From the NCBI GenBank assembly GCA_030672375.1, contig DAOVGP010000010.1, positions 1 to 36,201 of the forward strand: a stretch of 36,201 nt of DNA. The letters are read 5' to 3'. The stretch's first letter is position 1. The number at the start of each line of letters is the position of its first letter. The DNA comes from Candidatus Aenigmatarchaeota archaeon. GTDB lineage: Archaea; Aenigmatarchaeota; Aenigmatarchaeia; CG10238-14. Shown one piece after another: positions 5,930-31,826 of the stretch. The notes beneath the pieces were generated by a model. The model had not been told where the DNA came from. It did no database searches and saw nothing but the letters and a program-made list of their open reading frames with translations. Made by a program: the position numbers and the translations under genes.

Positions 5930-6586
5930 ATGGAAAAATTCAATTGTTGGTTACCTACTTGGGTTGAATTACACGAAAACATCAGAGATATCGCGAAGAA
6001 AATTAAGAAGGATAATTATCGACCTGACATTGTAATTGCTTTATCGAGAGGGGGTTTTATACCTGCCAGAGTCATCTGTGATTTGATGATAATCAAGGAT
6101 TTGCTCTCGGTAAAAGTTGACCACTGGGGTATAACTGCCACTAAAGACGGAAAAGCACATCTGAGGTATCCTATTGATGTTGATCTAACTGGAAAGAAAG
6201 TCCTTATTGTTGACGATATCACAGATACTGGAGAGAGTATGGCCATTGCAAAAGAATTCGTAGAAAAACTCAACCCCGAAGAAATAAGAACAGCAGCAAT
6301 ATTCCACATCAAAACTTCAAAATTTATTCCAAATTATTACAGCGAGGAAATAGATTGGATTTGGGTGATGTGGCCTTGGAATTATATTGAAGACATGTGT
6401 AACATTGTACCTAAAGTATTGGATGAAAATAAGGGTAGTTCTATCAAAGAAATCAAGAAAAATTTAAAAGAAAATTTTAAGATCGATGTATCAGAAGAAC
6501 AAGTCATAGAAATATTGGGCGAACTTGTTGTAAGGAATGTTGCTACAGAAAATGGTGAGGGTTGGATAAGGGGAAGAATAGATTAA
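5930..6586 (+). CDS. Purine phosphoribosyltransferase (archaeal Hpt/Gpt/Apt-type) with a C-terminal extension
   Basis: 218 aa with the PRPP-binding motif KVLIVDDITDTGESM. It is the only plus-strand gene inside the salvage cluster. Confidence 0.8.
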   Translation: MEKFNCWLPTWVELHENIRDIAKKIKKDNYRPDIVIALSRGGFIPARVICDLMIIKDLLSVKVDHWGITATKDGKAHLRYPIDVDLTGKKVLIVDDITDTGESMAIAKEFVEKLNPEEIRTAAIFHIKTSKFIPNYYSEEIDWIWVMWPWNYIEDMCNIVPKVLDENKGSSIKEIKKNLKENFKIDVSEEQVIEILGELVVRNVATENGEGWIRGRID

Positions 6587-10966: not shown

Positions 10967-12283
10967 TTACTTTGCCTTATTCTTATCAGACTTTGATTTC
11001 TTACTAGGTTCTCTTTTTACTACTTCTAGAACAACTCCAGCAGCAACAGTCATTCCCATGTCTCTTATTGCAAACCTTGCCAATTGTGGAATATCTGCTT
11101 GTTTTTCTACAACCATAGCATGTGTTGGAACTACTTTAATCCTTGCAGCATCACCAGTCTTGATGAAATCTGGTTTTTCTTTCACTACTTGACCTGTCTT
11201 CGGATCGATTTTTGCGATTATCTCTTCTATCTTACAAGCGACAGATGCTGTTCCTAAGTGAAATACAGGTGTATATCCTGCAGTCATAACAGTTGGATGT
11301 TGAAGCACTATTATCTGCGCAGTAAATTCCTTTACTACTGTTGGTGGATTATCTGGACGTCCTGCAACATCTCCTCTTTTGATATCACCTTTTCCGACAC
11401 CACGAATATTAAAACCAATATTATCTCCTGGTCTAGCTTCTGGTTGTTGTTTGTGGAACATCTCGATTGACTTAACTTCACCCTTTGCACCAGAAGGTTC
11501 GAATATCAATGTATCCCCTTGTTTCAAAATACCAGTTTCTACTCTGCCAACAGGAACTGTTCCTACCCCTGTTACCGTATAAACATCCTGAATTGGAATC
11601 CTTAACGGTTTATCAATCGGTTGTTTTGGTGGAGTTATAGTAGCATCCATTGCCTCAACCAATGTTGGCCCTTTGTACCAAGACAAAGATTCAGATTTCT
11701 TGAAGACATTATCCCCTTTCAAACCAGACAGAGGAACGAAAGGCATATTGTCAACCTTAAAACCTATAGAACTCAATAATTTCTTTGTCCCTTCTACGAC
11801 TTCATCATATCTTTTTTGATCGAAATTTGCACTGTCCATCTTATTCACAGCAACAACGAGTTGATTTACACCCATAACTTTCATCAAGAATGCATGTTCC
11901 TTTGTTTGTTCTTGAACACCTTCCCCTGGTTTTGCAGAAACGACGAATATAGCGGCATCAGCCTGAGAAGTTCCAGTGATCATGTTCTTAACAAAGTCCC
12001 TGTGACCAGGACAATCGATTATAGTGTAGTAATATTTCTTAGTATGGAACGGACGATGCATTATATCAATAGTAAGACCACGTTCTCTCTCTTCCTTCAA
12101 TTGATCCATGACATAGGCAAACTCCCAAGTTTCTCTCTTCAATTCCTTAGCTGTGTCTTTTAACTTTCTCAATTGGTCGTCTCTTATCGCCCCAGAATCG
12201 TAAAGTAGTCTTCCGACTAGAGTAGATTTACCATGATCTACGTGTCCAGCAGTAATGATGTTGATTTTTGGTAATTCTGCCAT
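10967..12283 (-). CDS. tuf: Translation elongation factor EF-1alpha (aEF1A)
   Basis: 438 aa with [17 protein letters not shown] and NKMD GTPase motifs. A GGAGGTG Shine-Dalgarno sequence lies upstream. The protein has an unusual Lys-rich C-terminal tail. Confidence 0.96.
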
Positions 12284-12339
12284 TAGTTCACACCTCCTCC
12301 GACACTATTTTATATTCAATCATGTTTTTAAATATGTTT

Positions 12340-14529
12340 TTATTCGAGTTTAGGTACGTGTTCACTCAAACCCTTTCTCTTCCTTATCTTTAGGATTGTT
12401 TGGTCCCGTAGTTGTTTTGGAAGTCTCTCAAATATAACATCGATTAAACTATAAAAACCTTTCCCCCCTGTGGTCGATTTTAAAGAAGAGTTGAAGCCAA
12501 ACATCTCTGAGACTGGGATTTTGGATTTTATTATGGTCATTCCTCTTTCTTCTCTCATATCCAAGATTTTTCCTCTTCTGTTACCAACTTCCTTTATTGC
12601 TCCCCCCATCATTTCTGTGGGAACATCAATCCTTATGATCTGTAGTGGTTCAAGGAGAGTAGCATCAGCTCCCAACATACACGCTCTTATGGCACGCCTT
12701 ATAGCAGGAAGGATTTGACCTGGTCCTCTGTGAACAGGATCTTCATGTAGGTCAGAATCAGTTATAATAACCTTCAAACCAACGCAAGGTTCTCTCGTCA
12801 AAGGGCCTTCATCCATCCTATTAGTAAATCCTTCCTTGATCAGTTCCATAACTTCGTTCAAATATTGTACACCTTTAGTTTGATCAACAAGCATATTCTT
12901 GTTATGAATAAGTTTTAGTTTCTTTATTTCTCTCACGGGCATACCTAACTCTGACAGTTTATCCTGGAGTTGTAAGTTCTTCTTCTTTAATTTTATATTT
13001 GAAGGTACATCTCCTGATTTCATCGCATCGAGTACTTTTTTTTCTAAAGGTTCAACAAAAATACAAAATTTATTGTGTTTATTTGGTGATTTCCCTTCTA
13101 ACACTCCTGATTTCTTACTAATAGTCTCTCTGTACACGACTATAGGTGGAGATGCTTCGAACTCTATTCCTTTTTCTTTTAACTTTCTTTCCACTTTTGC
13201 ATCTAGATGCAACTCACCCAAACCCGAGACTAAGTATTCACCTGTTTCTTGATTAATCTTAACTTGAATCGTTGTATCTTCTCTCGCTAATTTCTTCAGG
13301 AAATTAATGAGTTTCACCAAGTCTTTAGGATCTTTCGGTTCCAAGGATTTAGTGACCACTGGCTCGAATACATGTTTAATCTCTTCAAATGGTTCAACTA
13401 AATAATCGGGCTCACAGATTGTTTCACCTGAGAAGGCGTCGATCAAACCAACTATTCCAACAATATTTCCTGCTGAGACTTCATCGACTTGAATTCTTTT
13501 TGCCCCTTTGTAAACACTTACTTGTTGTATTCTATTTTTCTTGTGTTGACCGACAAGATAAACCTCGTCCCCTTGTTTTATACTTCCAGAAAATATTCTT
13601 GCACATGCCACATAGCCAGCATGCGGATCAGGAACCATTTTAGTAACTACACCTATCAAATGCCCTTTACTTTCTACTGACACCATGGATTTTCCAATTT
13701 CAGATTCAAGTTCTCCTTTCCAGACCTTACCAAGTCTGTATTTTTGTGCTTCCAAAGGTGATGGTAGATGTCTAACAATTATATCTAAAATAACTTGATA
13801 TAAAGGAGCTTTCTTAGCTAATTCATCTTGTCTATTCTCATTAGTTGCATCAATAATTTCCTTGAAAGTAATCCCACTTTTTTGCATGTAAGGAATAGAA
13901 ATAGCCCATTTTCTCAATGCGGAACCAAAAGAAACAGAACCATCATTAACATTAACCACCCACTTATCTTTATACTCTTTCTCCCCGTATTTTTGAATGA
14001 GCATGTTTACTTCTCTGATAATTCTTTCAAATGTTTTTTGTATTTGATCTGGACCCAACTTAAGTTCTCTTATCAGTCTATCAACTTTATTGATGAATAG
14101 AATGGGTTTAACTCTATCTTTCAAACTCTGCATTATCACTGTTTCTGTTTGTGGCATTACACCTTCTACTGCATCTACAAGAACTATAGCACCATCAACT
14201 GCTCTCATGGCTCTGGTAACATCACCACCAAAATCAACATGACCTGGTGTATCTATCAAGTTTATCAAATAATCTTCACCTTGACAATTGTGAACCATGC
14301 TTGCATTAGCAGACCAGATTGTGATACCTCTTTCTTGTTCTTGATCGTCAGTATCCAGATAACGTCTTTGACCAGCTATTTCTGTAGAAATCATACCTGC
14401 TCCTGCAATTAAATGATCAGAGAATGTTGTTTTTCCATGATCAATATGGGCAATAGTACCAATGTTTCTTATATGATCTGGTTTATTCATCAAGTCCTTA
14501 ATTTTTTCTGCGATATCTTTTTCAGCCAT
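12340..14529 (-). CDS. fusA: Translation elongation factor EF-2 (aEF2)
   Basis: 729 aa with AHIDHGKTT, DTPGHVDF and NKVDR motifs, and the diphthamide-region string HEDPVHRGPGQILPA. Confidence 0.96.
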   Translation of the reverse strand: MAEKDIAEKIKDLMNKPDHIRNIGTIAHIDHGKTTFSDHLIAGAGMISTEIAGQRRYLDTDDQEQERGITIWSANASMVHNCQGEDYLINLIDTPGHVDFGGDVTRAMRAVDGAIVLVDAVEGVMPQTETVIMQSLKDRVKPILFINKVDRLIRELKLGPDQIQKTFERIIREVNMLIQKYGEKEYKDKWVVNVNDGSVSFGSALRKWAISIPYMQKSGITFKEIIDATNENRQDELAKKAPLYQVILDIIVRHLPSPLEAQKYRLGKVWKGELESEIGKSMVSVESKGHLIGVVTKMVPDPHAGYVACARIFSGSIKQGDEVYLVGQHKKNRIQQVSVYKGAKRIQVDEVSAGNIVGIVGLIDAFSGETICEPDYLVEPFEEIKHVFEPVVTKSLEPKDPKDLVKLINFLKKLAREDTTIQVKINQETGEYLVSGLGELHLDAKVERKLKEKGIEFEASPPIVVYRETISKKSGVLEGKSPNKHNKFCIFVEPLEKKVLDAMKSGDVPSNIKLKKKNLQLQDKLSELGMPVREIKKLKLIHNKNMLVDQTKGVQYLNEVMELIKEGFTNRMDEGPLTREPCVGLKVIITDSDLHEDPVHRGPGQILPAIRRAIRACMLGADATLLEPLQIIRIDVPTEMMGGAIKEVGNRRGKILDMREERGMTIIKSKIPVSEMFGFNSSLKSTTGGKGFYSLIDVIFERLPKQLRDQTILKIRKRKGLSEHVPKLE

Positions 14530-14588
14530 TTTTCTTCACGTAGATAAACTATCATTTTTAAAAGAAACTAATTTAAATGTTTTGATTT

Positions 14589-14795
14589 TTATCCAATATA
14601 TTTTACATCCTCGTCTACGTTAACTTTTCCTTTCTGCCTTTCAATCGCTTTCTTCAACTTCGCAACAAAAGCTTCCATCATAGGTAATGGTAAATACAAT
14701 TTGATTATCCTTTCCTTTCCTCTAGGAGAAAAACACATCAATTCCAAACAGAACATATTTCTTTTCCATTTTATCGAGAAAGCCTTTATCTGCAT
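14589..14795 (-). CDS. Hypothetical 68-aa protein between rps7 and fusA
   Basis: It is the only ORF in a 298-nt gap of an otherwise compact operon and lies on the same strand as its neighbours. I recognise no family. Confidence 0.3.
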   Translation of the reverse strand: MQIKAFSIKWKRNMFCLELMCFSPRGKERIIKLYLPLPMMEAFVAKLKKAIERQKGKVNVDEDVKYIG

Positions 14796-14827
14796 AAAAG
14801 AATATTTTGTTTGAGTTATTTAATCGT

Positions 14828-15427
14828 TTATCTCGCTCCACTCGCTTCTCTTTCAATTCTTTCCTTCTCTTTTATTGCAGTAGATTTAGAAGCATCATTC
14901 TTGTATGCATAGAATATCTCGTTTGTTAACGCGTCTGCCATAGTTTCTTTCTTCCCAAAGGATTTTCTGTAGGCAGATTGAACTATTATGGTAAAGGCCT
15001 TATCAACTCTTCTCTGTGGCGAAGTAATAACAGCCTTTCTAACTATGATCCCGCCCATCTGGTATGAGCTTATTTCTTCCCTTAATGCTGCATTCTCAAT
15101 CGCCCTGACAAGGATTTCGATTGGGTTTTCTTTTGTTCTTTCTTCCAATTTTTCGAATACTTTTTTTATTATATTTAGTATTGTTTGTGTCTTACCAACA
15201 TTTCTGCCAGATGACAACAGATGTTTTTTTCCTCTATGCCCAGGGACCATGAGTTTGTTTACGAGTCTTTCAACTATATTCACCTTAGATTTATGGAATT
15301 TATACTGGCTATACCTACCACCAGTCTTTGGAATAATGACTGGCTCTAAGTTTATGTAAGGCTTTAAGCCAAGGTCTTTTACTTCTACGTTGAAACTCCA
15401 CTTGTTGAATAATTTAAATTCTATCAT
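14828..15427 (-). CDS. rps7: 30S ribosomal protein S7 (uS7)
   Basis: 199 aa. LVNKLMVPGHRGKKH...A and the C-terminal IKEKERIEREA...R are typical of archaeal S7. It sits in the conserved position after rps12. Confidence 0.92.
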   Translation of the reverse strand: MIEFKLFNKWSFNVEVKDLGLKPYINLEPVIIPKTGGRYSQYKFHKSKVNIVERLVNKLMVPGHRGKKHLLSSGRNVGKTQTILNIIKKVFEKLEERTKENPIEILVRAIENAALREEISSYQMGGIIVRKAVITSPQRRVDKAFTIIVQSAYRKSFGKKETMADALTNEIFYAYKNDASKSTAIKEKERIEREASGAR

Positions 15428-15476
15428 TTTATGTCCCCTAAAATACAGTAAATTTAAAGATAAATTAATTTAAAGC

Positions 15477-15902
15477 TTATCTAACCGGTTTTTGTTTCTT
15501 CCCACTTAAAATTTCAGAAAGAGCTACCCCATTAACAGCAACGACCTTAAACTTTAATCCCCATTGGCTTCCTACGGGTCCTCTTTGACTTCCACCCACC
15601 CCTTCGATCAATACCTCATCATGTTCATTAATATGATCTATAGCACCCGTGCCCGGGACAAAAGCTGTAACTTGAACATTATTCTTTATCAATTGTACTC
15701 TCACAGCTTTTATCATACCAGAATGGGGCTGTTTTTGTTCAATCATCCTTTTATCGATAACAATACCTCTACCTCGAGGGGCGCCTCCCAATGGATCCTT
15801 TTTAGATAGTTGTAACTGTCTCCTCATGTATGATACGTCTTTCCACTTCTGCTTCTTTCTCTTCTTCTTTAGTTTTCTTGCAGCAAACATCCCCCTTGCC
15901 AT
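15477..15902 (-). CDS. rps12: 30S ribosomal protein S12 (uS12)
   Basis: 141 aa with [27 protein letters not shown] and VPGTGA motifs. Confidence 0.93.
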
Positions 15903-16318
15903 TACTTCACCTGAATATCGGATATATTGTGAACCCTCTTCAATATCTTCTTGTATGTTTTTATTTTTTCTCCACCTCTCCCTATGACAAGCCCTCTATT
16001 AATTTTGTTGACTTTAATTTCAACTTTTATTGAATCTTCATTATTTACTATCTTAACTTCTTTACACTGTGGGATTAAATTTTTAACAAAAGTCTCGATA
16101 TCACTCGAATACTCATAAACCTTCACTTTCTTTCCAACGATTCTCTCAACATTCTTTATGGAACTCCCATTTTTACCTATAGCTAGACCAATTTTTCCTT
16201 CTTCAACTACATAGTATATCACATCGTCAGTCATGAAACAATCCCTAACAGAAACATTTGTTATGTTCTCGAATAGTGTCAAGAGCCTTATACTTTCTGT
16301 CGTGAAAGTTATGGTCAT
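15902..16318 (-). CDS. nusA: Archaeal NusA-like transcription termination/antitermination factor (two KH domains)
   Basis: 138 aa. It carries two KH GxxG loops ([12 protein letters not shown] and [12 protein letters not shown]) and sits in the conserved position between rpl30e and rps12. Confidence 0.85.
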
Positions 16319-16587
16319 TTCTTACTCCTCCTTATAGCTAAGATGCTGACTGAGAATGGCTTCCCACATACTAACCCAAGATTCACATTATCGTTTGGAT
16401 ATTCTTTAATTTCAACGTTAGATATTTTAGCGTTATGTTCTATCATTTTCTTTCTATCATCAGGTAGATTATTAGCATAAACTATGAGTTCAGGGCGACT
16501 AGATTTTAACGATTTCATAACACTTTTATATCCGAGTAAAACTTTATCTTGTTTTATTTTCTCTTTTATTAGTTTACTTATGTCCAT
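16315..16587 (-). CDS. rpl30e: 50S ribosomal protein L30e
   Basis: 90 aa. KVLLGYKSVMKSL and the GKPFSVSILAI pattern fit L30e, and the gene sits in the conserved position after rpoA''. Confidence 0.87.
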   Translation of the reverse strand: MDISKLIKEKIKQDKVLLGYKSVMKSLKSSRPELIVYANNLPDDRKKMIEHNAKISNVEIKEYPNDNVNLGLVCGKPFSVSILAIRRSKK

Positions 16588-17721
16588 TTACTCCTCGCCC
16601 AATCTTGAGATTAACTCGAACATACCTGTACCAATAGGAACCTGTTGATTTACCATAACATTATCGAATATGGCGTCGAATTTATCCTCTTCTTGTCTGA
16701 CAGACGCCCGCACTAGATGTTTTATAGTCTCTTCAAACCCTGCTCTAGTGAGGATAGATGATTTCATACCAGCCACACCATACCTTCCGATAGCTTTAAT
16801 TTCTCCAGTAAACGTCATCATATCCGCTACCAATAAAACATGTCTAACATCTATATCCAACCCTTGTTGTTGCATAGTAATCTTAGTCTCTCTTATTATC
16901 GTATTCCTACCGGCTTCTATACCTAAGACGCTAGCCATTTCATGTATGTTGTTTGTGTAACTCCTCTTTATATCTATCTCATTAAATGTCATGATCTTAG
17001 CAAAATTAGAACCCATAGTTGTAATAACCCAATCATTTTCTTCCTTAATTATTATACTGTTCTTTATTTTGGGGATTCCGGATACACAAAAATCCAACAT
17101 TTTTTTCTTGAGTTTTTGTAGGTCCTTAATCGATAAATCTTTCACTTCTGACTCAACGTTTAAAATATCACCTTTGATAAGTATCTTGTAATTCTTGAAC
17201 TTTTTCCTAAGATTTGAAATGACTTCGTTTTTCCTTGATTTTTTTAGTTTTTTCAACTTAACTTTTATTTTCTTGTTAGTTAAATCAAGAGAGACTGATG
17301 TTATCATGTTTCTCAGTGTTTTTTCTGTGATTTTTTCAGCAATCTTTTCAGCATGTTTCTTAGTATTGTAATTCTTCTTCAAATACAAAGACATCATAGA
17401 TGCTTTTGGCTCTTTCTTTGCATCAAATATCTCGATTAATCTAGGTAATCCTAAAGTCACCCTAATTCCGACTGAACCAGCGAAATGGAAAGTACGCATG
17501 GTCATTTGTGTAGCAGGTTCGGATATAGATTGAGCCGAAATTATACCAATAGCCTCTCCAGGTTCAAAAGAACTATTCATATACTCTCTCTTAACAGCAT
17601 CGATTAGTTTCTTTTCTTTGACAGAATTAAATTTTTTCTCTCTACAAATCTTCTTTATATCATCTAATATTCTACCCGGTAATAATTCATCCGAATATTC
17701 TGTCTGCGATTTTTTCGACAT
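16588..17721 (-). CDS. rpoA2: DNA-directed RNA polymerase subunit A''
   Basis: About 377 aa from the ATG at 17721 (the track extends to a GTG at 17730). [28 protein letters not shown] is the trigger-loop region. The start overlaps the 3' end of the preceding ORF by about 35 nt. Confidence 0.9.
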
Positions 17722-20700
17722 TAATTCCACCTTTTTGTATTTTTGAGGGGTCCAATCCGTCCTCTCCTGGGACGAACTGTACTATTTTTTTAGCACTATC
17801 CCTGACAGTACCGTCGTACTCAACTTTCAAGTCCTGTAGTGCTCCGATCAATCTTCTCTCCAAATAACCACTATGTCTCGTTTTCAGAGATTTATCCATC
17901 AAACCTTCTCTACTGTTCATAGCATCAAAGAAGAACTCGAATGGATTTAAACCTTGCTTATAACCATTCTTCACGAAACCTTTTGATTCCAAACTTATAT
18001 CACCATGCTTGAAATGTGGAAAAGTTCTCCCAAAGTAACCAATCTTTATTCTTTGTCCTTTTATCGTCTCTTGACCTATACAAGCTGCAGTTTGAACAAA
18101 ATTTATCATGCTACCTCTCGCACCACTCCTTGCCATTATAACAGTATTGTTCATAGGAATCTGTTTCTCTACAACATTTGCAATTCTATTCAAACAATCA
18201 GCAAGTTTCCTTTGAATGAGTACTTCTAAACTGTCCCTGGGTGTTCTCCCAATTAAAACTTTTATTTTTCCTCTCTTAAAATCTGTGATTATTTTGTTTA
18301 CTTCTTGTCTTACATCGTTTATTATTTTATCTATCTTCTTGAGTGTATTCTCACTCAAATCATGATCAGAAAGTGAAATCGAAAAGCCTTGTTCTGTCAA
18401 GAATTTTAGAGCAAGCCTTGTGATGCTGAATAGAAACTCTTTCATAAATTTATGCCCGTATATCTTATCCATTTCATCCAGTATTTTTCCACTGAATGCA
18501 GCTACACTTTTCTTATCTATAGTTCCAGTTATGAGCTGACCTTTTTTTATGACAACATACGAATCATAAGGACACTTCTCCTTCATACATTTCGAACAGC
18601 CTATACAACATTCTGCTTTGTAACTCATGTTGAAATCTTTAGGTAGAAACAGACTGAACACTTCTTTACCAGTAAAAGTTTTCTTTTCTGGAATGTCTAT
18701 GTTTGGGTTACATGATTTTACCAATTGTACAACTTCCTTTCTTGTAAATTCTCGATGACCATGAGTCAACAAATACAAAGATGTTATATGATCTTTACTG
18801 CATCCAATTATAGGACCACTAAACCTTGGACTCCTAATATGATTGGGTACATCCATTAAAAGTTTTATCTCTGCCTGTGCTTCTTCTGCTTGTGGAACAT
18901 GCAAGTTCATTTCATCCCCATCGAAGTCAGCGTTATAGGGTGGACAAACAACAAGATTTAGCCTGAATGTTTTGTAAGGCATTACCCTAACTTTATGCCC
19001 CATCATACTCATTCTATGTAGAGAAGGTTGTCTGTTGAACAGTGCCCAATCACCATCTTCTAACTGTTTTTCAACGACGAATCCTGGTTCAATTTCTTTC
19101 GAAATTTCTTCTTTGTTTATTTCACTGATTCTTTTTTTCATACCGTCTGATCTTATTATGTAATTCACAGTTGGCCATTCTGGGTATCGGTTAATCAATG
19201 TTTTTATATATTCAATATTTTTTTCATTGACAACGATTGAAGTAGTTAACTCCTTTGCTATTTCTATAGGGACACCCACTTCATTAACATCGAGTAAAGG
19301 ATCAGGACTTATGACAGTCCTAGCTGAGTAATTGACCCTCTTTCCGATTAAATTATGCCTGAATCTTCCTTCTTTTGTCTTTAATCTCTGTGTTAAAGTT
19401 TTTAAAATTCTTCCAGATCTATGTCTGGCTGGTGGTACCCCAGAAAGTTCATTATTAATATAGGTCGCAACATGATACTGAACAAGTTCCCACAGATCTT
19501 GAATGATAAAATCAGGTGCACCTAAATCTATATTTTCTGCCAATCTCTTGTTTATTCTCACAATATCAACTAGTTTATGTGTTAAGTCATCCTCTGACCT
19601 TTCACCCGTTTCAAGTGTTATGGAAGGTCTGACTGTTACAGGTGGTATCGGTAAAAGAGTTATAATGAATAACTCTGGTCTAACTTTTCTTAAACCAAGA
19701 TAAATCAAATCTGAGTCTGGTATTTTTTCTAATTTTTCTCTAACTTGGATTGAATTTAAAATAGTACTGCCTTCAATGAAACTGGTCGGCTTCAAAAATT
19801 TTACCTTCTTTTGTGGTGTTCCACAATGAGGACATTTGCTTTTAACTAAGGCCTTTAATCTCTTGAATGATTTCTTTTTAGAAATGAATTTTTCCATACC
19901 ACCTTGATCTAAAAGAACTCTGCCACAATTTTGACAAGTTGTCTTTAATATGTTATAAATCAACTTTGCATAAAGAACATGAATAACGGGTCTTACAAGT
20001 TCTAAATATCCAAAATGTCCGGGACACTCACCAACAGTCCCAGCACACGCCCTGCATCTTAAACCAGGATCGATGACACCCAATCTAGGATCCATCAGAC
20101 CACCTTCTATTGGATAACCTTCTTGGTCGTAAAGGTCTGTCTTGTTTATTTTTGCAGCAGACATTTTTTTTATCGTCTCAGAACCCAAGACTCCAAATAC
20201 TATCTTTTCTAAAGTGTTATCCTTGCTGACTACTATTTTTGGATATATCAACATACTTTTCAATTCATCCATCAGAAGTTTGAACGCATAAGACATTTCA
20301 ACATCATCAACTTTAGATTCACCACACACAGGACAATATTTTTTATTCTTTATTCTATCATGAATTGCAATCAATCCACAATCTTTGCATATAGGTATGC
20401 TTGTCTTATCAGAACCAAATCTTTCTTTGAGGACAAGGGTGGCACCCTGTGCAATCAAACAATCTTTTTCCATCTCCCCTAACCTTAACCCACCCCTTTT
20501 AGACTTTCCTTCTGTAGGTTGCTTGGTTAAAAGTGTAACTGGACCTCTTGATCTGGCATGAATCTTATTTGAAACCAGATGATCTAATTTTTGATAAAAA
20601 ACGTTTCCCACAAATATCTGACCAGTTAATTTTTTGCCAGTTTGACCGTCATAAAATGTTTCCTTTCCATCGCCCCTAAAACCATGCTCTTCAAGAGTTC

Positions 20701-22012
20701 TCCTAAGTCCTGATTCGGAAAGGGAATGAAACGCGGGACTACTCAATCTTTCACCTTTCATAGCAGAAACCTTTCCAGCTAATATCTCCAATAATTGACC
20801 TATGGTCATCCTAGAAGGGATACCATGAGGGTTGAATATTATATCTGGAACTACCCCGTCTTCCGTGAATGGCATGTTTTCTTGAGGAACTATTAGGCCT
20901 ACAACACCTTTTTGTCCATGTCTACTAGCAAATTTATCACCAATTTCTGGTTTTTTCAAATCTCTTAGGATTACCTTTACCAGTTTACTGCCATTTTTAC
21001 TTTCTGTTATGAAGACTCTATCGACTATTCCCTCTTCACCGTGTCTTAATTTGACTGAAGTTTCTCTAATATTCTCCAAGCCTGTTATGAATTGATCGAG
21101 AGAACCGAGGAATCTCAAGGGTGATACTTTTCCGATGAGTACTTCATCAGATTTAACCTTTGTCCCAGGGTTGATGATCCCGTCTTCTGGTAGATGTTTA
21201 TAAGCATCTTCTCCAGGATATCCTCTTATACCTGGTTCTGGAACCCCGATGATATCTTCTTGACCTCCCATGTATCTCTTTTTTTCAGCTTCGTATGACC
21301 TGAACAAATAAGACCAGAATAAACCTCTTTCTATGGACGATTTATTCATTACTATTGCATCATCCATATTGTACCCCTCAAAGGACATTATCGCGATGAC
21401 TATGTTTTGACCACCAGAATGGTTCTCATCTTTTAGAACGTCGTTAATATGTGTCTTGACGAGCGATACTTGTGGGTCAATTAATATATTAGATTTTGTA
21501 TCAGTTCTCATTGGAAAATTCAAAGAGTACATACCAATAGCTTGACCTACCATCTTTGCTCCAAAGTTTACTCTATCTCCACGATCAAATTCTGGGAAAG
21601 GAACCAATGATGTAGATAGTCCAAATATTGTTACAGGATCCAATTCCAGATGTGTATGCTCTTTTGTCAAATCCCCTGGTTCTAATGCTACATAAGTATT
21701 TTCTTCTTCTTCTGCATCTAGGTATTCAATAACACCTTCTTTTATTAAACCAGACCAACTCATCTTCTTCTTTTTTATCTTTTCGATATGTTCTCTAGTG
21801 AGTTTTGGTTTACCATTCTCTACGACTATCAAAGGACGCCTCGCTCTCCCAGAATCAGTAAGTATTTTTATCGTATCCAAATGTTCCAAATGGGCAACAT
21901 TCACTTGATCAGAAATCTGTCCCTTTCTCCTTTTCTCTCTGATCAAATTTACGATTTTCTCTGGCTTTTCAGTCGTTCCAACGAATTTTCCACCTAAAAA
22001 TACATCAATCAT
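17687..22012 (-). CDS. Fused DNA-directed RNA polymerase subunits B' (residues about 1-598) and A' (residues about 600-1441) in one ORF
   Basis: The B' part has [27 protein letters not shown] and a Zn ribbon (CKDCG...CPVCG). After ...[20 protein letters not shown] the frame runs straight into the A' N-terminus: [44 protein letters not shown], then [15 protein letters not shown]. There is no stop codon or plausible internal start at the junction (about 20183-20242). Confidence 0.85.
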
Positions 22013-22013
22013 A

Positions 22014-23498
22014 CTAACTCTCCAAATTCTTTTTAATTAGGTTGTATGTCTGTTTGATTTCCTTCTCAGATCTACCTGTAGTTATCTGGGACATTACCGA
22101 TAGATATTTTCTCAAACCGATTGTCGCTCCTTCTGGTGTTTGTGATGGATCTATTCTTCCCCAATGCGTCGGGTGTAACTCTCTCGCTTCGAAATGTTCT
22201 TGTGTAGATGTTAAAGGAGATAGAATATTTCTCATATGAGATAGAGTTTTTATATAACTACTTCTCTCTAACCTTTGAGAGACACCTGTCCTTCCTCCAA
22301 CCCAAGCCCCTATTGCTAAGGCAGATAATATCTGATTTGTCAGGACATTTGCTTCAACTATAGCTTGTAAGGGAGGGAATCTACCTCTTTTGGTTAATTT
22401 TTGATAGTTATATGTGATTCTTGTTATCAGTCCCCACTTTCCTAATAGTATAGACCTGAACAGAATTTCAAGTAAATCTCCAGATAATCTTAAACGTTTA
22501 TTAGAATAATGATCCAAATCATCCTCTGGAATTTTATTCAAATGAAAGAGTAAAATTTTGTTTACAGCTTTAGAAAGGAATATGGCTTTATTAAGCCTAT
22601 CTGCCTTATCCTGGCCCAAGTGTGGTAGTAGATATCTATCTATGAGTCTTGCAACTCTCTCTCTTCTATATTCTTTTTGTGGTATCCTGATGTGCCCACC
22701 TATCTCATCTATAGCTTCCTTTGCTGTTGACGATTCACTCTCGAACAAGTTGGGATAGAACTCTTCTTGGATCTCTGGATTTAGAGATATTGCATTAATT
22801 ATATCTTTATCGGATTCTAACCCTAAAGCCCTCAACAGAATGACTATCGATAAGTTGCTGATGTTAGCGAAGTTTATCCTGACAACTCCGTCTGTTTTTC
22901 TCTGTATCACATGCCTCTGGATGTATCCGTCTTTTTGTGAGTGAATTCTTGCACTTTCTGTTACATTTGGGATATTAGATTTTTCGACTATAATTCGATT
23001 TGGAGCAATTTCCTCTATTAAAACCAAGACTCTCTCAGTTCCATTTATGATGAAGTAACTACCTGGATCATCAGGACTTTCTCCGGCTTCTATTAATTCT
23101 CTCGTAGTCATTTTGGATAGAGGACAGTATTTTGATTTTAACATAATTGGCAAATCTCCAAAATTAACCCATATTGTTTCACTTTCAATTTCGTTCAGGA
23201 TTGGCGTCATTTCAACGTACATTGGAGCTGCATAAGTTAAGTTTCTAATCCTTGCCTCTAATGGTAAAATATTCCTAACAGAACCATCTGCCTCTTTGAC
23301 AGAAGGTACACCTAATTTGAATTTTCCAAGTTTTATCTTGAATTCACCTAAATCAGGGACTTCGGGTTTTATCTCTTTTATTTGTTTTATTATATTATGA
23401 ATCCTTCTATCCACAAAAGCATTAAAAGAGTCTATCTGAAACTTTACGAAACCTTGCTCATCAGCGAACGAACCCAAAAGTACTTTAAATCCATCCAT
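22014..23498 (-). CDS. rpoB2: DNA-directed RNA polymerase subunit B'' (N-terminal half of the split B)
   Basis: About 494 aa from the ATG at 23498 (the track extends to a GTG at 23507). The N-terminus FQIDSFNAFVD... is typical of Rpb2. One nt separates its stop codon from the ATG of the B'-A' ORF. Confidence 0.9.
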   Translation of the reverse strand: MDGFKVLLGSFADEQGFVKFQIDSFNAFVDRRIHNIIKQIKEIKPEVPDLGEFKIKLGKFKLGVPSVKEADGSVRNILPLEARIRNLTYAAPMYVEMTPILNEIESETIWVNFGDLPIMLKSKYCPLSKMTTRELIEAGESPDDPGSYFIINGTERVLVLIEEIAPNRIIVEKSNIPNVTESARIHSQKDGYIQRHVIQRKTDGVVRINFANISNLSIVILLRALGLESDKDIINAISLNPEIQEEFYPNLFESESSTAKEAIDEIGGHIRIPQKEYRRERVARLIDRYLLPHLGQDKADRLNKAIFLSKAVNKILLFHLNKIPEDDLDHYSNKRLRLSGDLLEILFRSILLGKWGLITRITYNYQKLTKRGRFPPLQAIVEANVLTNQILSALAIGAWVGGRTGVSQRLERSSYIKTLSHMRNILSPLTSTQEHFEARELHPTHWGRIDPSQTPEGATIGLRKYLSVMSQITTGRSEKEIKQTYNLIKKNLES

Positions 23499-23500
23499 TT

Positions 23501-23746
23501 TTAACACTCTATTACGATTCTATAATAAACCGATTCTTTTGTTGCTTCACTCTTTCTGATTATCTTGATGAGGTCGCCAACTTTTGCAGCTAAAGCACAA
23601 GCGATAGGATCTGACTTCAATAACTTGGGAAATTGGCTCATTTTTTTTATTCCATACTTCTTAATAACATCATTTTTTTCATCTTCCGAGAGAATTATAT
23701 GTTTAGGAACTATTTTATGGTCAAATATGTTTATCTTATTCTTCAC
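23501..23746 (-). CDS. rpoH: DNA-directed RNA polymerase subunit H (Rpb5-like)
   Basis: 81 aa. DHKIVPKHIILSEDE...FPKLLKSDPIA...GDLIKIIRKS...YYRIV is the RpoH pattern. The start is GTG, preceded by a GGTGA Shine-Dalgarno sequence. Confidence 0.87.
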   Translation of the reverse strand: MKNKINIFDHKIVPKHIILSEDEKNDVIKKYGIKKMSQFPKLLKSDPIACALAAKVGDLIKIIRKSEATKESVYYRIVIEC

Positions 23747-23757
23747 ACTATCACCTA

Positions 23758-23852
23758 CGCCCTGAAGGGGATTTGAACCCCTGTCCCGGGAGTGACAGTC
23801 CCGGAATCTACAACATTTAACGTTTTGATAGACCGAGCTACACCATCAGGGC
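23758..23852 (-). tRNA. tRNA-Asp (anticodon GUC) with a roughly 20-nt non-canonical intron in the D-arm region (about 23806-23825)
   Basis: The reverse complement has acceptor stem GCCCTGA/TCAGGGC, discriminator G73, anticodon arm CGGGA-CTGTCAC-TCCCG and T-arm AGGGG-TTCAAAT-CCCCT. The gene is 95 nt against about 75 expected. The extra 20 nt lie between the D-loop and the anticodon stem, inside a helix-bulge-helix-bulge-helix fold. CCA is not encoded. Confidence 0.75.
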
Positions 23853-23874
23853 TTATGTAAAAACTATCGAATAG

Positions 23875-23882
23875 AAATTTAA
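23875..23882 (-). promoter_or_regulatory. Candidate TATA box (TTAAATTT) about 23-30 nt upstream of tRNA-Asp
   Basis: The position relative to tRNA nt 1 fits archaeal TATA spacing. The sequence context is AT-rich, so specificity is low. Confidence 0.3.
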
Positions 23883-23884
23883 CC

Positions 23885-23889
23885 AAAAA
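23885..23889 (-). terminator. Oligo-T tract (TTTTT) about 50 nt downstream of the 5S rRNA
   Basis: The minus strand reads CCCCAATTTTTGG between the 5S gene and the tRNA-Asp TATA candidate. Archaeal terminators are typically oligo-T runs. Confidence 0.25.
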
Positions 23890-23938
23890 TTGGGGATGGG
23901 AAGTAAATTTTCTGATCAATAATGGGTCACCATCAAAT

Positions 23939-24079
23939 GGGTTGACAACGTCCTGGGTTTCCCGCCCGAGGGCAGTACAGTCCAGATCACTGGAGAGTTT
24001 AACTTTCACGCAGTCTTTATAGACTGTTCCGTGTTCGGGATGGGAACGGGTATTTCCCCTCCGTTTTGGTCGTCAACCC
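23939..24079 (-). rRNA. rrf: 5S rRNA gene, 141 nt, interrupted by a 23-nt insertion
   Basis: The reverse complement starts GGGTTGACGACC and ends GTTGTCAACCC (helix I). It contains the universal 5S string ACCCGTTCCCATCCCGAACACGGA...AGTTAAACTCTCC. Ends are uncertain by about 2 nt. Confidence 0.88.
24005..24027 (-). other. Putative BHB-bounded mini-intron (or hairpin insertion) within the 5S rRNA gene
   Basis: The minus strand reads CACG-GAA-CAGTCT-ATAA-AGACTG-CGTG-AAA. This is a 4-bp helix (CACG/CGTG) flanked by two 3-nt bulges on opposite strands, plus a 6-bp inner hairpin. Removing ACAGTCTATAAAGACTGCGTGAA restores the consensus CACGGAAGTTAAAC. Confidence 0.55.
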
Positions 24080-24168: not shown

Positions 24169-24283
24169 TCCCCGGAGCCGGATTTGAACCAGCAACCTAT
24201 CGGTATCTTTCGAGCGATTGCTAACGATCAAGTACCATAGTACTCGACTACAGCCGATCGCTCTACCATTGAGCTATCCGGGG
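24169..24283 (-). tRNA. tRNA-Tyr (anticodon GUA) with a 43-nt canonical (37/38) intron at 24205-24247
   Basis: The reverse complement folds as CCCCGGA-TA-GCTC-AATGGTA-GAGC-G-ATCGG-CTGTAG[43 nt]A-CCGAT-AGGTT-GCTGG-TTCAAAT-CCGGC-TCCGGGG-A. The C1:G72 pair is the archaeal tRNA-Tyr hallmark. A BHB fold is present with bulges AGT and ATA around the helix CTGT/AAAG (one G.A mismatch) and an inner helix CGAG/CTCG. Confidence 0.85.
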
Positions 24284-29134: not shown

Positions 29135-31050
29135 CTCCAAGCGACGAACTGAGGTCTTTTAGACAGTAACTTTGGGAGAGATGATTTTCTAAATGGTTTA
29201 TTCTTTATTTCTTTCTTTAATATTTTAACAAACTCATCGACCTTCATTTTCTTAACCTTTCCTATCTTTCTGATCCTTACTGGTAATATACCTGATTTCA
29301 TTTCCCTTTCACCAACGACTATAGAATAAGGAACCCACTCCATCTCTGCATTCCTCACCCTCTTCTCGACAGATTTGTTCCTGTCGTCTAGATCAACCCT
29401 TATGTTTTCCTTCTCTATTTTTTCCATGATTTCTATCGCTTGTTTTATATGTTTATCAGAAACGGGGATTACTCTAACTTGAATTGGGGAAAGCCATAGG
29501 GGTAGAATGGGATTCTTACCCTGTTTTTGTTCCTTTGCCGCTTTTTCCAACAATCCATACATAACCCTGCAGATTGCCCCACTCGGACTTAAATGTAAAA
29601 TCGTAACTGGTTTTTTCTTCCCATCTCTGTCTGTATAATAGATTCCATAATTTTCAGCATTCTCAACATCGATTTGATCTGTCGTTAGTGCAGAAGCTTT
29701 ATCCAAGTTATCGACGAAGTTCAGCTCATATTTCAATATGAAATAGAAGAATCTTTTATCCCACATCTCAATTAAAGCAGGTTTTCCGTGAGTTTTAACT
29801 AAAGACAAAACGAAGTCTTTATTCTTTTCCCAAAATTCTTTTACAACTCTTATTCCTAACTCAAAATCTTCTGGAACATTGAACCCAAACCCTTTTTGGA
29901 TTTTTAACGCTAAGTCAAATCTTTTCTTCATTTCTTCCATTGCCTGTGGAACATCAGAACAGAATGCATGACAATCAGGCATGATAAAACTTCTTAATCT
30001 TCTCAAACCGACTAACTCTCCTCGTTTTTCCAACCTGAAAGAATATTTTGCCATTTCATACAGTCTCATTGGCAATTCTTTATAGGATATTATAGCATCG
30101 TGGGCCATTGTGAATTGTCCAAAACATGCTGCAAAACGCAAGAAAAATTTTCTCTTAAACGATTCTACTATATATTGTCTCGCAGGGAATCTATTCAAGT
30201 ACTTGACCATGACAGGATGATTCAAATCATACATAATTGGAGTCTCTACCTTCATCGCCCCATAATCTATTACGTTTGAATCAACCCAATTCTGAATCAA
30301 ATCTCTCATTAACTCTCCTTTGGGGTAATACCTTAAGTTTCCAGGATCACTCGCACTCTCGTAATCCGCGAGTTCTAATTTTCTCATCAACTCGACATGT
30401 GGAGGTTTTTCCTTCACTTTTCTACTCTTTGCCATTTCATACATGGCGAATTTTTTTAGGTTTTCATTTTTTTTCCAGTCAAAATCTTTGCCTGCAACAA
30501 CCTTTCCATCTTTAATTTCCAAAGGTATTAAATCTCCTTTTGGAGTAAGGATGCGCCAAGATGATTTCATTTTTTTTTCTGCTTTAAGTGCTTTGGAAAC
30601 TGTTTCTTCTTTCACTTCTTTTTTCTTTTCTCCAACCACAATTTCTTTAAAAGATTCAGCAAGAGGATGGCCCAAACAATGTAATACAAATTCTTTATAC
30701 CAACCAAAGGGTGAGACATGCACTGGAAGTTTTTGTTTTTTAGATTCTTTTTCCATCTCTTTTATCGCTCTATCAGCAAGATATGGACTAGCGAGATCGG
30801 AACTCAAATGAGCATAAGGATAGATGACTATATTTTTAGCTTTAACTTCTTCGAATTGATTTTTAATTTCTTTTATCGATTTTCCAACAACTTCCTTTAA
30901 GTATTGCTCATCTCTATTTTCTGCACATGTGAGAACTACTAATACATTTTCTATTTTGACTTTTTTCTTTTCAACATCCTTTATGTATTTTAACGCCTTC
31001 CTAGTAGGCTTATATTCTAAGAATTTCGAGTGTATCAAAAGCATTCTCAT
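29131..31050 (-). CDS. thrS: Threonyl-tRNA synthetase, archaeal type with N-terminal editing domain
   Basis: 639 aa. The MRMLLIHSKFLEYKP N-terminus is typical of the archaeal ThrRS editing domain, followed by a class II catalytic core and a C-terminal anticodon-binding domain. Confidence 0.93.
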   Translation of the reverse strand: MRMLLIHSKFLEYKPTRKALKYIKDVEKKKVKIENVLVVLTCAENRDEQYLKEVVGKSIKEIKNQFEEVKAKNIVIYPYAHLSSDLASPYLADRAIKEMEKESKKQKLPVHVSPFGWYKEFVLHCLGHPLAESFKEIVVGEKKKEVKEETVSKALKAEKKMKSSWRILTPKGDLIPLEIKDGKVVAGKDFDWKKNENLKKFAMYEMAKSRKVKEKPPHVELMRKLELADYESASDPGNLRYYPKGELMRDLIQNWVDSNVIDYGAMKVETPIMYDLNHPVMVKYLNRFPARQYIVESFKRKFFLRFAACFGQFTMAHDAIISYKELPMRLYEMAKYSFRLEKRGELVGLRRLRSFIMPDCHAFCSDVPQAMEEMKKRFDLALKIQKGFGFNVPEDFELGIRVVKEFWEKNKDFVLSLVKTHGKPALIEMWDKRFFYFILKYELNFVDNLDKASALTTDQIDVENAENYGIYYTDRDGKKKPVTILHLSPSGAICRVMYGLLEKAAKEQKQGKNPILPLWLSPIQVRVIPVSDKHIKQAIEIMEKIEKENIRVDLDDRNKSVEKRVRNAEMEWVPYSIVVGEREMKSGILPVRIRKIGKVKKMKVDEFVKILKKEIKNKPFRKSSLPKLLSKRPQFVAWS

Positions 31051-31397
31051 AACTTTCCCTCCCCATTTAAGATATTTAACTCTTTTGTTAAATATATTGA
31101 GTCTCGAAATGTAATTGAACTGCCAGAACTTAATTTTTCAATCATACTTGGTCTCCCAGGTTTTTTTTGAGATATCGATAATTTTATTCCTCCTTTATAT
31201 ATTCGATTTAAAATTTCATCGTTACATCTTCTGAAAGCATACATGGAAAAAGAAATTGTGATGAGTTTTGGACATCCACACAAAACTTTTTTGATAATTT
31301 TTTTGCTCACAAATTTTCTGAAATGAATGAATTTAACAGAAGATGAAAGTTTTGATAAATCTGAGTAACTAGAAATTGAGATGTGTTTCTGATTCAC
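31047..31397 (-). CDS. Hypothetical protein, translationally coupled to thrS
   Basis: 116-aa ORF whose stop overlaps the thrS ATG by 4 nt. I recognise no family. Confidence 0.45.
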   Translation of the reverse strand: MNQKHISISSYSDLSKLSSSVKFIHFRKFVSKKIIKKVLCGCPKLITISFSMYAFRRCNDEILNRIYKGGIKLSISQKKPGRPSMIEKLSSGSSITFRDSIYLTKELNILNGEGKL

Positions 31398-31448
31398 CTT
31401 TCACCGTTATCACCAGTTAAATATATCCTTTGGAGGAAAATGATATAA

Positions 31449-31826
31449 ATGTTTTGGAATGTCACAATATTAGTAGGTGATTTTATCAAAGAGGTTAATC
31501 TTGTTAATTTTGATAGTTTCGATGAAATACTTATAAAAAAAGTGAGAGATGTAGCACAACCATTACTAGACAAGTATAACAGAATGTATAGTGAAGATAA
31601 GATACAAGAATTCAAACTGGTAGTAGACACAGTCAGAAAAAAACAAGAAAAATATCTGTATGAAGTTATTGGAACTTTGAAAACCAACAAAAATTTTTTC
31701 AGGACTGAAGAGGTTGGGTGGAAGATCTTAGATACAGTCGAAAAAGTAATAGATGAACTTGGGGGAATGGTTACAAAAAAGAAGGGAAGAAAGAAATCTA
31801 AAAAGAATCTACCAGCAAATGCATAA
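31449..31826 (+). CDS. Hypothetical basic-tailed protein; possible HPF/RaiA-like (S30AE) fold
   Basis: 125 aa. The predicted order of segments is beta-alpha-beta-beta-beta-alpha, and the terminal helix plus Lys-rich tail (VEKVIDELGGMVTKKKGRKKSKK) recalls ribosome hibernation factors. This rests on pattern similarity only. Confidence 0.45.
   Translation: MFWNVTILVGDFIKEVNLVNFDSFDEILIKKVRDVAQPLLDKYNRMYSEDKIQEFKLVVDTVRKKQEKYLYEVIGTLKTNKNFFRTEEVGWKILDTVEKVIDELGGMVTKKKGRKKSKKNLPANA

Follow-up and report, generated by a model that had tools for sequence, protein, structure and literature searches.

An in-frame rpoB'-rpoA' gene fusion in the RNA polymerase cluster of a large Aenigmatarchaeota lineage

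The RNA polymerase cluster and its joined reading frame

The DNA studied here is a metagenomic contig of 36,201 nucleotides (nt) from Candidatus Aenigmatarchaeota archaeon (assembly GCA_030672375.1, contig DAOVGP010000010.1, positions 1-36,201), referred to in its full length as the window, and the subject of this report is a gene within it in which the coding sequences of RNA polymerase (RNAP) subunits B' and A' share a single open reading frame (ORF). This ORF occupies positions 17687-22012 on the minus strand and encodes 1441 amino acids (aa) followed by a stop codon. A first, sequence-only reading of this DNA had proposed that the B' frame runs without a stop into A', and the ORF list, the translation and a Pfam analysis which placed nine RNAP domains on one chain bore this out. 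Rpb2 domains 4, 5, 6 and 7 were located at residues 4-594 and Rpb1 domains 1, 2, 3 and 4 together with the N-terminal part of Rpb1_5 at residues 600-1419 of the same polypeptide, with E values ranging from 1e-10 to 1e-127. The fused chain covers the first 66 positions of Rpb1_5 only, and the rest of this domain is found in the separately encoded A''.

The B' (Rpo2C) moiety comprises residues 1-596 (20225-22012, minus strand) and was identified by matches to PF04566, PF04567, PF00562 (E = 2e-127) and PF04560. PDB chains 36ro_B and 4qiw_B align to residues 3-596, and the moiety as a whole aligns with residues 519-1114 of the B subunit of Pyrococcus furiosus. In a motif search both the barrel motifs GDKFA/GQKG and, at residues 542-563, the C-terminal zinc ribbon CKDC...CPVC proved to be intact. 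Four residues (597-600, KDNT; 20213-20224, minus strand), encoded without a stop or start codon, form the junction turn, and these are followed by the A' (Rpo1N) moiety at residues 601-1441, which with the stop codon occupies 17687-20212 on the minus strand. Matches to PF04997, PF00623, PF04983, PF05000 and PF04998 identified this moiety, to which chains 8cro_A (E = 2e-284), 4qiw_A and 2waq_A align over residues 599-1441, and both its N-terminal zinc site (residue 653) and the catalytic motif NADFDGD (residue 1027) are intact. Judged by its sequence, the fused protein is a fully canonical archaeal RNAP core.

As the sequence-only reading had stated, B'' is encoded separately. The rpoB'' (Rpo2N) ORF at 22014-23507 (minus strand, ATG at 23498) carries Rpb2_1, Rpb2_2 and Rpb2_3 in a frame of its own, and a 494-aa gene was called for it by JGI in L081, one of two close relatives of the window (L081 and L082, from JGI samples 3300027893 and 3300001854). 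The gene ends in GAG AGT TAG, with the stop codon at 22014-22016, and a single base (T) separates it from the ATG of the fused gene, so that the two lie in different frames. On the other side rpoA'' (Rpo1C), which holds the remainder of Rpb1_5, is also a separate gene (ORF 16588-17730, minus strand; 377 aa in the JGI call). Analysis of its start region pointed to a probable ATG at 17721 preceded by AAGGTGG, which would make it overlap the last 35 nt of the fused ORF (17687-17721) in another frame. The RNAP cluster is thus packed very tightly, with one base between the genes for B'' and B'A' and a 35-nt overlap between those for B'A' and A''.

The first gene of the cluster is rpoH, encoding the Rpb5 C-terminal domain (23501-23746, minus strand; PF01191, E = 6e-27). 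Downstream of rpoA'' Pfam identified, at 10967-16587 on the same strand, genes for L30e, a NusA-KH protein, S12, S7, EF-2 and EF-1alpha, together with a 68-aa ORF. The gene order rpoH-rpoB-rpoA-L30e-nusA-S12-S7-EF-2-EF-1alpha was established from Pfam matches of the neighbouring ORFs, and the same genes are present in L081 and L082 according to the JGI annotation. The locus is a canonical archaeal RNA polymerase cluster, with the exception that B' and A' are in one reading frame.

The B'-A' junction in sequence and structure

The junction sequence quoted in the sequence-only reading is present at 20183-20242, where both the nucleotide sequence and its translation show the C-terminus of B' passing in frame and without a stop into the N-terminus of A' at residues 596-601, as in a fusion of the beta::beta' type. 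The earlier expectation that only a few linker residues would separate conserved sequence on either side also held, with 4-5 residues obtained both by alignment and from an AlphaFold2 model. No intein, Hint or protease module was detected by Pfam between the two moieties, where these 4-5 residues link conserved strands and no extra domain is present.

Among 101 fused homologues which matched both motifs, the distance from YAFK in B' to GG.MD in A' is 61-65 residues and is free of stop codons throughout. Measured from the conserved proline of YPK to the phenylalanine of the first A' strand, the spacing is 13-16 residues in 105 fused proteins and 14 in the window protein; in 25 unfused relatives the B' tail and the A' head together have a median length of 21 residues and are never shorter than 14. 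The spacer in fused proteins is constant in length and variable in sequence, polar and often acidic, and no methionine is conserved in it across the family.

The last strand of B' and the first strand of A' are neighbours in the clamp core, and this holds for all multisubunit RNA polymerases. When the junction segment was searched by sequence against the PDB, the best match was chain A of 3QQC (E = 2e-53), with which the window junction aligns unbroken over the stretch ...RPKLNLSEGGKVIGSIEFG... of that entry. 3QQC is a recombinant Pyrococcus furiosus clamp in which residues 1053-1115 of B, 3-318 of A' and 334-371 of A'' were joined by short Gly/Ala/Ser linkers; this soluble construct bound Spt4/5 in stoichiometric amounts and could be crystallised (Martinez-Rucobo et al. 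2011, PMC3094117). Its short linker between the C-terminal residues of B and residue 3 of A' is at the place in the structure where the natural fusion has its junction, and the construct differs in being an artificial, isolated domain which includes a piece of A'' and in having a junction one residue longer than that of the window. Alignments to the native chains placed S596 opposite residue 1114 of the Pyrococcus B subunit (1117 aa) and L601 opposite residue 5 of A', and the natural fusion therefore puts four residues in place of seven free terminal ones.

Residues 505-905, a fragment which is 50-57% identical to solved archaeal structures, were modelled with AlphaFold2 from a 21-sequence alignment of fused homologues (mean predicted local distance difference test score (pLDDT) 65, predicted TM score 0.66). 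The model contains strands at residues 589-595 and 601-608 with a five-residue loop (596-600) between them, and pLDDT is approximately 78-81 over the junction. Its best fold match in the PDB was again 3qqc_A (E = 1e-26, TM 0.70/0.73, root-mean-square deviation 3.8 A, 356 columns), which outranked the A' chains of archaeal enzymes. In the clamp core, the terminal strand of B' and the initial strand of A' are thus predicted to pair as a hairpin with a tight turn of 4-5 residues between them. From the strands in the model and the match to 3qqc_A it follows that the fusion would close a hairpin between clamp-core strands which were already neighbours. The question raised in the sequence-only reading, whether the two termini are near enough for a linker of about five residues, is answered in the affirmative by the collinearity with 3QQC, the modelled hairpin and the fold match.

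Relatives, distribution and evolutionary history

The window protein represents a cluster at 90% identity whose five members, drawn from NCBI, JGI/IMG, ENA and Logan, are all 1441 aa in length. Independently assembled close relatives carry the same open junction. L081 and L082 are 97.1% identical to the window in DNA over all 4326 bases of the gene, with 125 mismatches and no gaps, and a single amino-acid difference (K597E) falls at the junction. The codon differences from these two relatives were counted as 72 synonymous and 47 non-synonymous, giving a ratio of non-synonymous to synonymous rates (dN/dS) of 0.2 as a rough estimate, which indicates that the whole fused gene has been held under purifying selection.

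A protein search was made against 5.8 billion protein clusters and the best 120 matches, with identity down to 54%, were analysed. Rpb2 and Rpb1 domains were found in one protein in every one of these 120 clusters, of which 88 are B'A' proteins (1417-1461 aa), 27 are fusions of whole B to A' (1909-1932 aa, including Rpb2 domains 1-3) and 5 are truncated. Where an NCBI organism was given it was Candidatus Aenigmatarchaeota in all but two cases. The sequence-only reading had regarded a split B together with a B'-A' fusion as an odd combination; this view was not upheld, since it is the commonest architecture in the clade (88 of 115 full-length clusters, the other 27 having whole B joined to A').

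GTDB genomes, one per species, were then scanned with the alignment of the junction, a query which spans the junction itself, and 80 loci were retrieved. The B'-A' frame is uninterrupted in 11 of these (L001-L004, L006-L010, L018 and L019), four of which are named Aenigmatarchaeota. In all, the fusion is found in 115 full-length clusters, in 11 GTDB species representatives and in independent assemblies. A stop codon is present at every other locus of the 80; these include Woesearchaeota, Nanoarchaeota, Micrarchaeota, halobacteria, Methanosarcinales, Archaeoglobi, Thermoplasmata, Asgard archaea and Thermoproteota. In many of the unfused archaea among the 80 loci the B' stop codon shares its frame with the A' ATG, the two often being 1-5 codons apart, and therefore loss of the stop codon alone would yield a fusion.

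To place the fused genes, a neighbour-joining tree (a simple distance method) with bootstrap was calculated from the shared B'+A' region of 146 sequences over 1400 columns. All fused sequences together with an unfused group, G4 (L011, L017 and L042), formed a clade apart from other DPANN archaea in 100 of 100 bootstrap replicates. In G4 the B' stop is followed after 2-3 codons by the A' ATG in one frame (junction at approximately 6001-6486 of each locus), and the termini are unusually short, at 7 and 8-9 residues. An indel survey found five deletions common to G4 and all the fused groups, none of which is decisive for the placement of G4. This group could represent either the state before fusion or a secondary fission, and, as far as these sequences can tell, the genes would either have fused once and later been split again or have fused on more than one occasion.

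The proteins in which whole B is joined to A' (P0065, P0084-P0115 and loci L010 and L018; 1909-1932 aa) fell into at least three separate groups of the tree, of 22, 8 and 1 sequences, and their monophyly was recovered in 1 of 100 replicates, so that joining or splitting at the B''/B' boundary has happened more than once in this clade. Across the region of that boundary these proteins are open and collinear with the window.

We also looked for independent B-A' fusions by comparing the junction segment with 1.84 billion 50%-identity representative proteins, where, besides two short fragments, a single full-length representative (P0067) was found to span the junction. One of the fragments, P0239 (141 aa), is divergent (40% identity) and looks TACK- or Asgard-like. 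It has a B C-terminus ending in ...YAFKLLLQEMQSLCLSP, a serine-rich stretch and then an A' N-terminus beginning MSKIIDSIKFGLL..., and may stem from a sequencing error or from a separate fusion event in a different lineage. Other changes in the large subunits were seen among the scanned loci. In Micrarchaeota and relatives (L032, L035, L036, L038 and L039) the frame downstream of B' has 1129-1194 codons, which suggests that these carry an unsplit A, with A' and A'' in one gene, as another change of large-subunit boundaries. Unusually long B or A frames were present at L043, L047, L054 and L059, with an A segment of 1358 codons in Archaeoglobaceae, a B segment of 1624 and an A segment of 1389 codons in Borrarchaeum, and A segments of approximately 1021-1026 codons in Methanomicrobiales and a related locus; these may be inteins, insertions or unsplit genes.

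Several further features were observed in the window outside the RNAP genes. Just upstream of rpoH, at 23940-24077 on the minus strand, Rfam identified a 5S rRNA gene (46 bits) which, at 138 nt, exceeds the 120-nt model and has about 22 extra nt inserted in one of its loops. At 24169-24283 (minus strand; Rfam, 58.9 bits) there is a 115-nt tRNA gene, which was missed by ARAGORN and has a 46-nt stretch in the anticodon loop where the model has 3 positions, probably an intron. An 84-aa ORF at 23755-24009 (minus strand) has no Pfam match, overlaps the 5S rRNA gene as well as a T-arm-like element (23765-23800), and is probably spurious. ARAGORN reported an odd 95-nt "tRNA-???" at 23758-23852, and the RNA element near this position could be an unusual or split tRNA. 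Three small ORFs of 116, 98 and 68 aa without a Pfam match are located at 31047-31690 and 14589-14795 (minus strand); that of 68 aa sits between the genes for S7 and EF-2, and a gene was called for it in the JGI contig L081 as well.

Interpretation, precedents and meaning

We consider it highly probable (roughly 90%) that the locus carries a genuine, vertically inherited B'-A' gene fusion whose product is a single chain of about 165 kDa. Several observations weigh against this. The AlphaFold2 model is of moderate overall quality, with the mean pLDDT and shallow 21-sequence alignment given above, and the pairing of strands at the junction is read from the DSSP string and the fold match. In the tree G4 falls inside or next to the fused sequences, the internal nodes of the clade having support of only 37-38 of 100, and a group of all fused sequences alone was recovered in 1 of 100 replicates, so that the fusion may have had more than one origin. 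Finally, 25 of the 101 fused homologues have a methionine in the spacer region, mostly 6-8 residues before the conserved phenylalanine and about where the ancestral A' start would be expected, and therefore internal initiation is possible in some members of the family.

The methionines in these homologues also provide an argument for the alternative that the ORF is fused and B' and A' are nevertheless produced as separate polypeptides, by internal initiation or by proteolysis of the linker, with no effect on the enzyme. We regard this as unlikely. The spacer of the window protein contains no methionine, none is conserved family-wide, and the window offers just two in-frame start-type codons past the junction, a TTG (residue 609) and an ATG (residue 617). 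The sequence-only reading had noted that residue 617 is the first in-frame ATG and that a start there would truncate A'; we agree, as initiation at either codon would delete the first conserved A' strand. A Shine-Dalgarno sequence with proper spacing was sought at both codons and was found at neither, the TTG having a GGAG only 2 nt upstream, while the true starts of B'A' and A'' are preceded by GGAG and GGTGG, respectively, at 5-6 nt. Proteolysis is opposed by the linker itself, which is 4-5 residues long, lies in a predicted tight hairpin and contains neither an intein nor a protease-site module. Even with internal initiation, moreover, the upstream start would still give the full-length chain.

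A second alternative is that the fused gene is a decaying or non-functional paralogue and that working RNAP genes lie elsewhere in the genome, of which the window makes 36 kb visible. This is very improbable, as the catalytic and zinc motifs are all intact, the gene is under purifying selection and stands within the canonical rpoH-B-A-L30e-nusA-S12-S7-EF cluster, and an unfused close homologue is absent among the best 120 database matches. The weakest alternative, an assembly artefact in which a stop codon was lost or a frameshift compensated at the B'/A' boundary of a metagenome-assembled contig, is ruled out for practical purposes by the same open junction in independent assemblies from four sources and in 115 full-length fused clusters at 54-89% identity. 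One relative that is 68% identical to the window across the junction, L005, does have a stop codon exactly at this point (locus 2208-2681); its contig has 3.9x coverage and its B' is interrupted a second time 143 codons upstream of the junction, and L005 probably reflects poor assembly or degradation of the gene, so that we rejected its stop codon as evidence against the fusion.

If the B'-A' fusion is what we take it to be, the events leading to it may be proposed as follows. The starting point would have been a pair of adjacent rpoB' and rpoA' genes in an ancestor of a large clade of Aenigmatarchaeota, lying in the same frame with only a stop codon and 2-3 codons between them. The B' stop codon would then have been lost and the free termini trimmed to give the merged gene, whose product, a single chain of about 165 kDa, would unite the two double-psi beta-barrels of the active centre. 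The remaining parts, B'' with the protrusion and lobe and A'' with the jaw and cleft, would be made separately and dock onto B'A'. The two catalytic halves would necessarily be synthesized 1:1, and the interface between B' and A' would be assembled within one molecule instead of between two. An effect of the fusion on assembly is plausible by analogy with the archaeal RNAP of Methanococcus, the assembly of which is described as hierarchical and sensitive to stoichiometry (PMC13556214). The fusion also fits the genome and gene compaction of DPANN archaea.

The bacterial precedent invoked in the sequence-only reading is documented for Helicobacter, where, as in Wolinella, beta and beta' are fused (Zakharova et al. 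1998, 1999, as cited in PMC9696931, and entries tabulated in PMC2919709). There, as here, the C-terminus of the second-largest subunit is in frame with the N-terminus of the largest, the fusion is lineage-wide, the genes that merged were neighbours in a single operon and the resulting chain carries both catalytic barrels. The bacterial fusions, however, join two complete subunits, whereas in the archaeal case splits flank the joined chain on both sides (B''|B'A'|A''), or in some relatives on one (BA'|A''), so that the polypeptide boundaries have been shifted and are not merely fewer. Orf6 of the yeast killer plasmid pGKL2, an Rpb2::Rpb1 protein, and Corynebacterium NCgl1702 likewise have the second-largest subunit followed by the largest in one polypeptide, but these are extremely reduced, divergent and non-canonical enzymes in contrast to the canonical archaeal core described here; the same source lists Archaea only as A'+A'' with B or B'+B'' (PMC2919709).

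Wolbachia also has an rpoB-rpoC fusion. The two largest subunits have been joined in the laboratory as well, in a bacterial enzyme: in work attributed to Severinov et al. in 1997, E. coli beta and beta' were reportedly tethered artificially, and assembly and activity are said to have been compatible with the covalent linkage. That a link of this kind is tolerated was already evident from the bacterial fusions and from the engineered clamp. The archaeal fusion is therefore mechanistically unsurprising, and it leaves the understanding of how RNAP works unchanged.

Within Archaea, the known rearrangements of the large subunits are the B'/B'' and A'/A'' splits (PMC7289017; bioRxiv 10.64898/2026.06.17.729505) and a secondary re-fusion of A' and A'' in Pacearchaeota (PMC5484517). 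These resemble the present case as rare, lineage-specific fissions and fusions of RNAP large subunits that have been used as phylogenetic markers, and differ in that their boundaries fall within one subunit, whereas B'-A' joins two different ones. Full-text searches of open-access papers yielded no account of a natural archaeal B-A' fusion, and two 2026 studies of Aenigmarchaeota RNAP, on Rpo6 (PMC13257274) and on B'' (bioRxiv 10.64898/2026.06.17.729505), do not mention it. The sequence-only reading was aware of no archaeal B'-A' fusion, which agrees with the open-access papers searched; in public databases such sequences, named "subunit A'", have long been deposited. What is apparently new is an inter-subunit RNAP fusion in Archaea combined with flanking splits, the archaeal counterpart of the known beta::beta' fusion.

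The usual archaeal polypeptide boundaries are B or B'+B'' and A'+A''; a large Aenigmatarchaeota lineage uses B''|B'A'|A'' or BA'|A'' instead. With both catalytic barrels in one chain, and so presumably in an obligatory 1:1 ratio, this lineage would offer a natural experiment on RNAP assembly. As annotation pipelines label the fused proteins "subunit A'", marker sets that treat RpoB and RpoA as separate proteins may mishandle Aenigmatarchaeota. The fusion is also a candidate rare genomic change for DPANN phylogeny, for which insertions in the same enzyme already serve as markers (bioRxiv 10.64898/2026.06.17.729505).

More speculatively, and with considerable doubt on our part, the fusion may be a stable, clade-defining change which, taken with the recurrent changes at the B''/B' boundary in this clade, would show that the phylum rebuilt its RNAP around a single-chain, two-barrel B'A' core onto which B'' and A'' dock. 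Were this so, the assembly pathway would depart from the canonical order, in which a platform of Rpo3, Rpo11, Rpo10 and Rpo12 binds Rpo2 and then Rpo1, and the fusion would provide a clean marker for disputed DPANN relationships, for example whether Nanohaloarchaea are sister to Aenigmarchaea or not.

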